Source of the DNA: a virus
Taxonomy: Duplodnaviria > Heunggongvirae > Uroviricota > Caudoviricetes
Reading direction: 5' to 3' (one strand)
Length of the DNA stretch: 38,716 nt
IMG/VR virus record: IMGVR_UViG_2740892369_000044
Shown: positions 34,984-35,569 of the stretch, in pieces
Numbering within the stretch: position 1 is the first letter of the stretch
Layout of the letters: each line of letters starts with the position of its first letter
Made by a program: the position numbers and the translations under genes
Notes under the pieces: generated by a model
The model's database searches: none
Told to the model about the DNA's origin: nothing
What the model saw: only the letters and a program-made list of their open reading frames with translations

Positions 34984-34989
34984 TAAAAA

Positions 34990-35011
34990 AGAGAGGGAAA
35001 TATCCCTCTCT
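34990..35011 (-). terminator. Hairpin terminator between the tailspike stop and the gtrB stub; U-tract is on the minus strand
   Basis: AGAGAGGG-AAATAT-CCCTCTCT preceded on the plus strand by A6. Confidence 0.5.
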
Positions 35012-35015
35012 TACA

Positions 35016-35123
35016 TTAAATTACTTTATATGACTTCAATTCTTCGAATTCACGTACCGTTTTATAAAAAATTGGTATCGCTTCTTCTTCATTGAAGACA
35101 GGAACTACAAGAGATATCTTCAT
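35016..35123 (-). pseudogene. gtrB: Truncated gtrB (GT2 bactoprenol glucosyltransferase), only about 35 N-terminal codons
   Basis: Hand translation gives [32 protein letters not shown] then KVI-stop; ATG overlaps the gtrA stop as ATGA; the stub runs straight into the tailspike terminator. Confidence 0.6.
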
Positions 35124-35482
35124 TTCGCATCCCTAAAGACAATGAACTTTGAATAGACGAAACCGCACACCAGGCTTATGGCGGAGAAGATGACGAGAGT
35201 AACAAATGGTGGCAGACCGCACATGTCAGCAGCCCAGCCAACAACTGCGCTCATAGTGCCTATGAATCCAACGTAAAGCATGTATTTCAGCGTAGTAGTA
35301 GAGGCATTGAACGTAAATTTCGCGTTAGCGTAAAAACTGAACGATACAGCTATGACAAAACCAGCAAAGTTAGCAAGTACTTGATTTGTATGTATTACGT
35401 AAATACAGAAAGCAAACACAACCCAGTGTATGAGCGTGTTTAACACTCCGATTGACATGTATTTAGTGAACAGATGAAGCAC
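35120..35482 (-). CDS. gtrA: GtrA-family bactoprenol-glucose translocase (flippase)
   Basis: Closely matches GtrA from memory ([24 protein letters not shown]...[20 protein letters not shown]...[10 protein letters not shown]); GTG start at 35482 chosen by alignment, track start 35515 is also GTG. Confidence 0.8.
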
Positions 35483-35511
35483 TTTTTCCAGAAAAAATAA
35501 AAACAAATATA

Positions 35512-35569
35512 TCACCCTTTGGGTAATTTCGTTAAGAGCTATCTGAGTTTATTTAAACCATATGTGGTT
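35512..35569 (+). promoter_or_regulatory. Late-promoter-like cassette upstream of the lysis genes: TCACCCTTTGGGTAA (about 35512-35526) and CATATGTGGTT (about 35559-35569)
   Basis: Read directly; first lysis-gene ATG at 35619. Confidence 0.5.

Follow-up and report, generated by a model that had tools for sequence, protein, structure and literature searches.

Our results suggest that the O-antigen glucosylation operon (gtrABC) of a Uetakevirus prophage in Escherichia coli O26 is dead, and that its remains derive from a P22-like cassette that underwent an internal deletion. We assign this reading a probability of roughly 0.85. The deletion took the gene in the gtrC position except for its last 11 nt, along with gtrB from codon 33 on, and it left an intact gtrA next to a 35-codon gtrB stub.

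The window, by which we mean the entire stretch of 38,716 nucleotides that was analyzed, is a Uetakevirus (epsilon15/phiV10-like) prophage of EHEC O26. The prophage is ~38 kb long, runs from the integrase to the lysis cassette, and occupies a site flanked by guaA and yfgI. Its assignment is based on gene order and DNA similarity in the tailspike N-terminus and the lysis cassette. The nearest classified phages are the Uetakeviruses BUCT554 (an Enterobacter phage) and phiV10, with nucleotide identities of 73-77% to BUCT554 on both sides of the gtr locus and of 83.5% to phiV10 in the holin region. The first holin gene, which is divergent from gtrA, marks the return to the prophage backbone, and the layout around it is the same in BUCT554 and in a second Uetakevirus, L015 (UViG_2558860467_000003). 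The locus is 100% identical to that in many EHEC O26 chromosomes, including E2865, RM10386, and 97-3250. Coordinates are collected in Table 1.

Table 1. Features of the tailspike-gtr locus, in window coordinates
Feature	Position	Strand	Basis
Tailspike gene, 873 aa, mosaic	32362..34983	+	ORF; Pfam Tail_spike_N and Beta_helix
P22-like (Lederbergvirus) block: receptor-binding domain, terminator, gtrC tip, gtrB 5' end, gtrA 3' end	33318..35176	.	
GC-rich hairpin, 10-bp stem, between the convergent tailspike and gtr genes	34989..35012	.	Terminator scan; folding
gtrB pseudogene stub, 35 codons (codons 1-32 are the GtrB N-terminus)	35016..35123	-	ORF; YfdH match
Remaining 11 nt at the 3' end of the otherwise deleted gtrC-position gene (stop TAA, the Lys and Ile codons, and 2 nt of the Asp codon in '...ETDIK*')	35021..35031	-	
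Deletion junction, ACTTTATAT	35023..35031	.	Three-way ungapped comparison; repeat contexts in L095 and L097
gtrA, intact, 120 aa, GTG start, itself mosaic	35120-35482	-	Pfam; YfdG match; WP_000902802.1
Promoter-like site upstream of gtrA (TTAACG, 18-nt spacer, TG-TATATT)	35506..35535	-	Consensus match only
First holin gene, Uetakevirus lysis cassette	35631..36023	+	PGAP; Pfam Phage_holin_8

The product of gtrA gives a full-length match to the Pfam family PF04138 (GtrA/DPMS transmembrane domain; E=1.6e-13, residues 7-116 against positions 1-117 of a 117-position model) at a length of ~120 aa, and it is 83% identical to YfdG of E. coli K-12 over 120 of 120 residues (E=1e-75). Its TGA overlaps the ATG of the following frame as ATGA (35120-35123), which bears out a preliminary description of this DNA in which gtrA was intact and overlapped gtrB in just this way. 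The overlap has been kept, but the reading frame behind it is only 35 codons long; full-length gtrB (303-310 aa) follows a related gtrA in 78 of 80 IMG/VR relatives. That this short frame is a gtrB stub with 32 genuine GtrB codons, as had been proposed, is confirmed by its match to K-12 YfdH (GtrB) at 33 of 34 residues (E=1e-20) and by the complete identity of its first 96 nt to gtrB of the parental contigs described below (L095 and L097). Gene position and pairwise and DNA-level comparisons underlie the identification; the stub itself falls into no Pfam family. Specifically, a Pfam search of the stub for the GT2 domain gave no match, and the complete catalytic domain (PF00535, ~166 residues), which intact L095 GtrB matches at residues 4-166, is absent from it. 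YfdH residues 2-302 can be aligned with a GtrB homologue of solved structure (5EKP). In the stub, residues 1-32 are left and all later ones have been deleted. The C-terminal region of GtrB has been described as made up of transmembrane helices. The final codons of the stub, 33-35 (K V I), and its stop come from the gtrC tip and the spacer in a different frame, and no gtrB-like sequence was found past the junction in any frame. RefSeq/PGAP already labels the stub a pseudogene ("glycosyltransferase; incomplete; missing C-terminus").

The stub does abut the hairpin that follows the tailspike gene, as described earlier: its stop codon (35016-35018) lies 3 nt from the stem, and on the other side the hairpin starts 5 nt past the tailspike stop codon (34981-34983). 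Folding energies are -16.2 kcal/mol on the plus strand and -18.4 on the minus strand (z = -4.8 and -6.1), and none of 200 shuffled sequences folded as well. The hairpin had been regarded as the terminator of the tailspike gene. A consensus scan, however, calls a terminator on the minus strand only, where a T-run (U-tract) follows the stem, which argues that the hairpin terminates the gtr operon and is not specific to the tailspike.

Undeleted parents of this arrangement were located by an exact DNA pattern search spanning the terminator. They are carried by Escherichia sp. E1V33 (L094) and by two metagenome contigs, OGSY01000618.1 (L095) and Ga0129312_1007820 (L097). The order in L095 is gtrA (120 aa), gtrB (306 aa; PF00535), a 506-aa gene (L095 1696-3216), the hairpin, and a convergent tailspike gene of 723 aa. 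The 506-aa gene occupies the gtrC position and ends in LVYNKPIETDIK or ...NKPIETDIK; a Pfam search of gtrC-position proteins assigned it to no family. The 11 nt of this gene that persist in the window are identical to its 3' end in all three parents and to the 3' end of ORF21 in the P22-like phage N7. In two further contigs, one from IMG/VR (L099) and one from a metagenome (L098), the tailspike-gtrC side is identical in kind, and the contigs end before gtrB.

When 2,338 bp were removed in silico from L095, the product had 0 mismatches to the window over 35014-35176. Because this removal reproduces the window, it shows directly that the junction is an internal deletion running from gtrC into gtrB. 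Over 33318-35176 the deleted L095 and the window differ at 45 of 1,859 positions (97.6% identity), and the similarity collapses at 35177; for the receptor-binding part and its 3' flank (33318-35031) the identity is 97.4%. The deletion endpoints carry imperfect direct repeats in the parent, ACTTTATAT at the end of gtrC and ACTTCATAT at gtrB codons 32-34, which lie 2,338 bp apart and share the imperfect 9-bp pattern ACTT(T/C)ATAT. The crossover falls within ATAT (35028-35031). To the left, as far as 35031, the window matches the 3' end of the N7 tailspike gene, the terminator, and the next 22 bp. On the right-hand side, the 5' end of yfdH and the 3' end of yfdG in the K-12 prophage CPS-53 match 35028-35176 at 100%. 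The two homologies overlap at 35023-35031. Microhomology-mediated illegitimate recombination or replication slippage probably produced the deletion. Against our reading of the locus as a dead operon, it can be argued that the parents come from metagenome contigs or from another Escherichia species, and not from O26 strains.

In phage N7 itself (L003, MH717096), this operon has decayed independently a second time, a fact that the annotation does not record. At N7 5158-5900, ORF21 ("hypothetical protein") is the 3' part of the 506-aa gene, joined to gtrA codons 1-19; these codons are of the CPS-53 type, and N7 intS is 95% identical. Homologues of ORF21 stand in the gtrC position, after gtrA and gtrB and convergent on a P22-type tailspike gene, in Morganella (L012) and in a JGI contig (L010). 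The Morganella gene (L012 6001-6429) is a 142-aa version that directly follows gtrB and may be either a remnant or a short form that works. A protein search with N7 ORF21 against 5.8 billion proteins recovered no more than four homologues, all of them short (105-259 aa); the full-length 506-aa gene escaped it and came to light only through the DNA pattern across the terminator. Among complete E. coli genomes, megablast with the ORF21 region found two near-identical N7-like prophages only, and no intact operon.

The preliminary description had accounted for the junction in another way, with a tailspike module that displaced gtrB and gtrC. Spelled out, a P22-like module would have replaced the 3' part of the resident tailspike gene, gtrC, and most of gtrB in one illegitimate exchange, the right end of which fell at codon 32 of the recipient gtrB. 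This scenario agrees with the fact that DNA running uninterrupted in P22-like phages reaches its right end at the junction; the phages are N7 and a Shigella sonnei contig (L011) that is 97.5% identical to the window over 33318-35031. In addition, Uetakeviruses with a gtrABC operon of their own at this position do exist (BUCT554 and L015). Yet the DNA to the right of the junction is P22-like as well: the stub and the 3' end of gtrA (35028-35176) match the Lederbergvirus/CPS-53 allele at 100%, compared with only ~77-90% for Uetakevirus gtrA and gtrB. Given that a single L095-type operon contains the two flanks, separated by 2,338 bp, one deletion suffices to join them. Furthermore, the junction has survived a swap of the receptor-binding domain. 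We therefore consider displacement unlikely and retain the internal deletion in its place.

The deletion sits inside a larger mosaic. The N-terminal anchor of the tailspike (to ~32845) is of the Uetakevirus type, with 73% identity to BUCT554 over 31874-32845. From 33318 on, the receptor-binding part is Lederbergvirus-derived and is 98.1% identical, over 33318-34949, to the tailspike of a P22-like prophage at argW in O26. The P22-like block that begins here is colinear with the parent once the 2,338 bp are removed. On the left, the block begins where the tailspike anchor gives way to the receptor-binding domain, a border shared by an IMG/VR contig (L008), and its right border falls inside gtrA (35176/35177). 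We infer that the receptor-binding domain and the gtr genes would have entered the Uetakevirus backbone as one cassette by homologous recombination, with crossovers at these two borders. Homologous exchange is possible because both genera share the layout of a tailspike gene followed by convergent gtr genes. The deletion may have occurred either before or after the transfer; no Uetakevirus with an undeleted L095-type cassette was found.

The contig L008 is informative about what happened around the junction. It has the same backbone and the same junction as the window, but its receptor-binding domain is of the N7 type (the 1,720 bp that reach precisely to the junction are 92.5% identical to N7). 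It follows that at least one swap of the receptor-binding domain took place with the junction already present, and that the loss of gtr genes does not depend on the arrival of the O26 tailspike. The earlier proposal of a mosaic breakpoint is correct insofar as the locus lies beside an exchanged receptor-binding module, but the link that it drew between receptor-binding exchange and the loss of serotype conversion does not hold. The conserved 3' end of the tailspike gene (34843-35031) is the likely right-hand crossover site of the swap. The O26-type receptor-binding domain occurs twice in the genomes that carry the prophage, the second copy being in the argW P22-like prophage (L006 4261-7597; 98% nucleotide identity), and 105 O26-type genomes have an argW prophage with this domain at 98% identity. 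In the argW copy an acyltransferase gene follows the tailspike instead of gtr genes, and the two tailspike genes diverge over their final 35 bp. Serogroup-specific tailspikes have been reported for O26 Uetakevirus and Lederbergvirus prophages, with horizontal transfer between the genera as the main driver (PMC10408124).

The surviving gtrA is also a mosaic. The 57 nt at its 3' end belong to the CPS-53/L095 type, and the remaining 306 nt, on the 5' side, are diverged and most resemble Uetakevirus gtrA; upstream of 35177 the window gtrA is only ~72% identical to CPS-53. The first ~180 nt are closest to L015, with identities of 0.73-0.90 per 30-nt window. The right edge of the stretch described earlier, 35515, corresponds to a 131-aa ORF for gtrA. 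This start is probably wrong, because homologues are 120 aa long, L015 gtrA likewise starts with GTG, PGAP places the start at 35482, and the -10 element of a promoter-like site (35506-35511) overlaps the upstream GTG of the longer ORF. We accordingly rejected the 131-aa frame for the 120-aa frame with its GTG at 35482. The Dam/OxyR phase-variation switch of Salmonella gtr operons requires GATC sites. No GATC occurs between 34599 and 35679, and phase-variable control of gtrA by Dam and OxyR was rejected, as the sites that the switch needs upstream of the gene are missing.

Natural variants of gtrA were also observed. In strain 03_3469 (L005 2714-3997), gtrA carries an IS600 within its 3' end, at codon 113, corresponding to window 35144-35146, and the flanks of the insertion overlap by 3 bp. 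A lineage of three genomes (L004) has a gtrA of 121 aa with one extra Gly codon, still intact (L004 3605-3970). Its differences from the window are a recombination patch, confined to ~75 bp that match the CPS-53 allele and correspond to window 35177-35250, which points to a different crossover point or to gene conversion inside gtrA.

The pathway formed by GtrB, GtrA, and GtrC has been described for Shigella and Salmonella (PMC7685785, PMC2629481). In the window, the gtrC-position gene is reduced to its last 11 nt, and the GtrB fragment lacks the rest of its GT2 domain and its C-terminus, so the prophage should be incapable of glucosylating O-antigen. On this point the preliminary description, which held gtrA to be orphaned and serotype conversion to be lost, is upheld. 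Nor does the host appear to supply gtrB from another place. A distant blastn with a chimeric query, which yields counts of places only and has a limit of ~65-70% nucleotide identity, detected no match to the interior of gtrB elsewhere in the carriers. In 31 of 32 carriers the matches were confined to the two tailspike places, and O26 genomes without the prophage gave one place; the third place in 97-3250 was already present with a tailspike-only query. Judging from the promoter-like site, the reading frame, and the terminator, all of which have been kept, gtrA may still be transcribed, and a short transcript of gtrA and the stub is plausible. Without a supply of Und-P-glucose, gtrA would most likely do nothing and be a neutral leftover, although with its reading frame intact in 31 of 32 genomes and plausible expression signals kept, it may have a residual function.

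A stronger version of the latter idea is that orphan gtrA has been kept, either alone or together with the 35-residue peptide, for a function independent of GtrB and GtrC, such as the flipping of another undecaprenyl-phosphate-linked sugar or an interference with envelope synthesis that would exclude phages. We regard this as very unlikely. The gene is intact in all carriers but one, and in IMG/VR and metagenome copies too, and it retains a promoter-like site and a terminator. However, the copies are nearly identical, too similar for selection on gtrA to be testable, and intactness is thus uninformative. The window and L008 copies have 2 differences only, both of which are non-synonymous. One strain carries the natural IS600 disruption, and the rule among relatives (78 of 80) is that a full gtrB follows. 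We know of no such activity for GtrA alone. On the same very unlikely reading, orphan GtrA might perturb the assembly of O-antigen or ECA and so give the lysogen a phage-exclusion or envelope phenotype.

The possibility that gtrB is truly full length and was truncated by an assembly or sequencing error is negligible, because the identical junction recurs in many independent assemblies (32 complete genomes, 2 IMG/VR contigs, and 1 metagenome contig, L096), and what lies past it is the terminator and the tailspike gene rather than frameshifted gtrB. A full-length gtrB frame, which would have spoken against the preliminary description, was not found at the locus.

Several other observations concern the prophage as a whole. 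A tRNA-Arg gene (anticodon TCT) lies inside it at 14903-14979 on the minus strand, in the terminase/portal interval. From coordinate offsets at the prophage ends, the window is ~968 bp shorter than the E2865 prophage (NZ_AP018808.1), somewhere in the early region left of 14903, which implies that the window comes from another strain or that there is an indel. The metagenome copy L096 (ERZ1643250 NODE-875), with its identical junction, has ~2.9 kb of extra DNA (4524-7382) upstream of the tailspike gene relative to window 31388-31886. The tailspike gene of strain F2_407_2_2 is split by an IS3-family transposase. As the insertions in gtrA and in this gene show, the prophage is undergoing decay in some strains.

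The locus is an ordinary gene remnant, one more degraded prophage gtr operon, and its pseudogene had already been annotated. Operon decay and cassette movement are themselves published themes (PMC2629481, PMC10408124, PMC4413052). What our analysis adds is the exact architecture of the parent, the 2,338-bp deletion with repeats at its endpoints, and the borders of the cassette. Taken together, these make the locus a clean example of how a serotype-conversion operon decays, and of how a receptor-binding domain and the adjacent genes for O-antigen modification travel as one cassette between P22-like and epsilon15-like phages. In practical terms, O26 EHEC should not be credited with a glucosylating, serotype-converting element on the strength of this prophage, and an annotation of "GtrA family protein" is by itself no sign of O-antigen modification. 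The junction sequence, carried by 32 of 5,426 complete E. coli genomes, is a handy lineage marker for the prophage.

Comparison with known systems places the remnant among the gtr operons of temperate phages. The gtrABC operons of P22, epsilon34, SfII, SfV, and SfX have a gtrA and a gtrB start, joined by the ATGA overlap, that are homologous to those of the window, and the gtr region is 76-79% identical at the nucleotide level to that of SfV, SfII, SfI, and SPN9CC. As in the window, the gtr operon of P22-like phages is convergent to the tailspike gene (PMC2629481). Unlike the P22 and Shigella phage operons, the window has a gtrB cut past codon 32, no gtrC, and no GATC upstream of gtrA, and the pathway cannot run. 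BUCT554 and L015 have the same succession of tailspike, convergent gtr genes, and holin, but with a full gtrB (305 aa), a gtrC of 483-485 aa (that of BUCT554 matches Pfam Glucos_trans_II), and other receptor-binding domains. All three genes are also kept in the yfdG-yfdH-yfdI operon of CPS-53 in K-12. The parents L094, L095, and L097 agree with the window in the receptor-binding domain and 3' end of the tailspike gene, the terminator, the 3' end of gtrA, and the 5' end of gtrB (96 of 96 nt). In contrast to the window, they still have the 2,338 bp in which the 506-aa protein and GtrB residues 33-306 are encoded, and their tailspike has a P22-type head-binding N-terminus; L094 differs further in adjoining intS and argW. 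A close parallel is the Salmonella prophage BTP1, a temperate podovirus in which a remnant gtr operon likewise lies beside the tailspike gene (PMC4413052). There, gtrA is a pseudogene (gtrA*) and an acetyltransferase-type gtrC is active, whereas in the window it is gtrA that survives and gtrB and gtrC that were lost. Our findings thus add to the degraded prophage gtr operons, and to the exchange of gtrABC between phage types, that have been described before (Villafane et al. 2008; PMC2629481).
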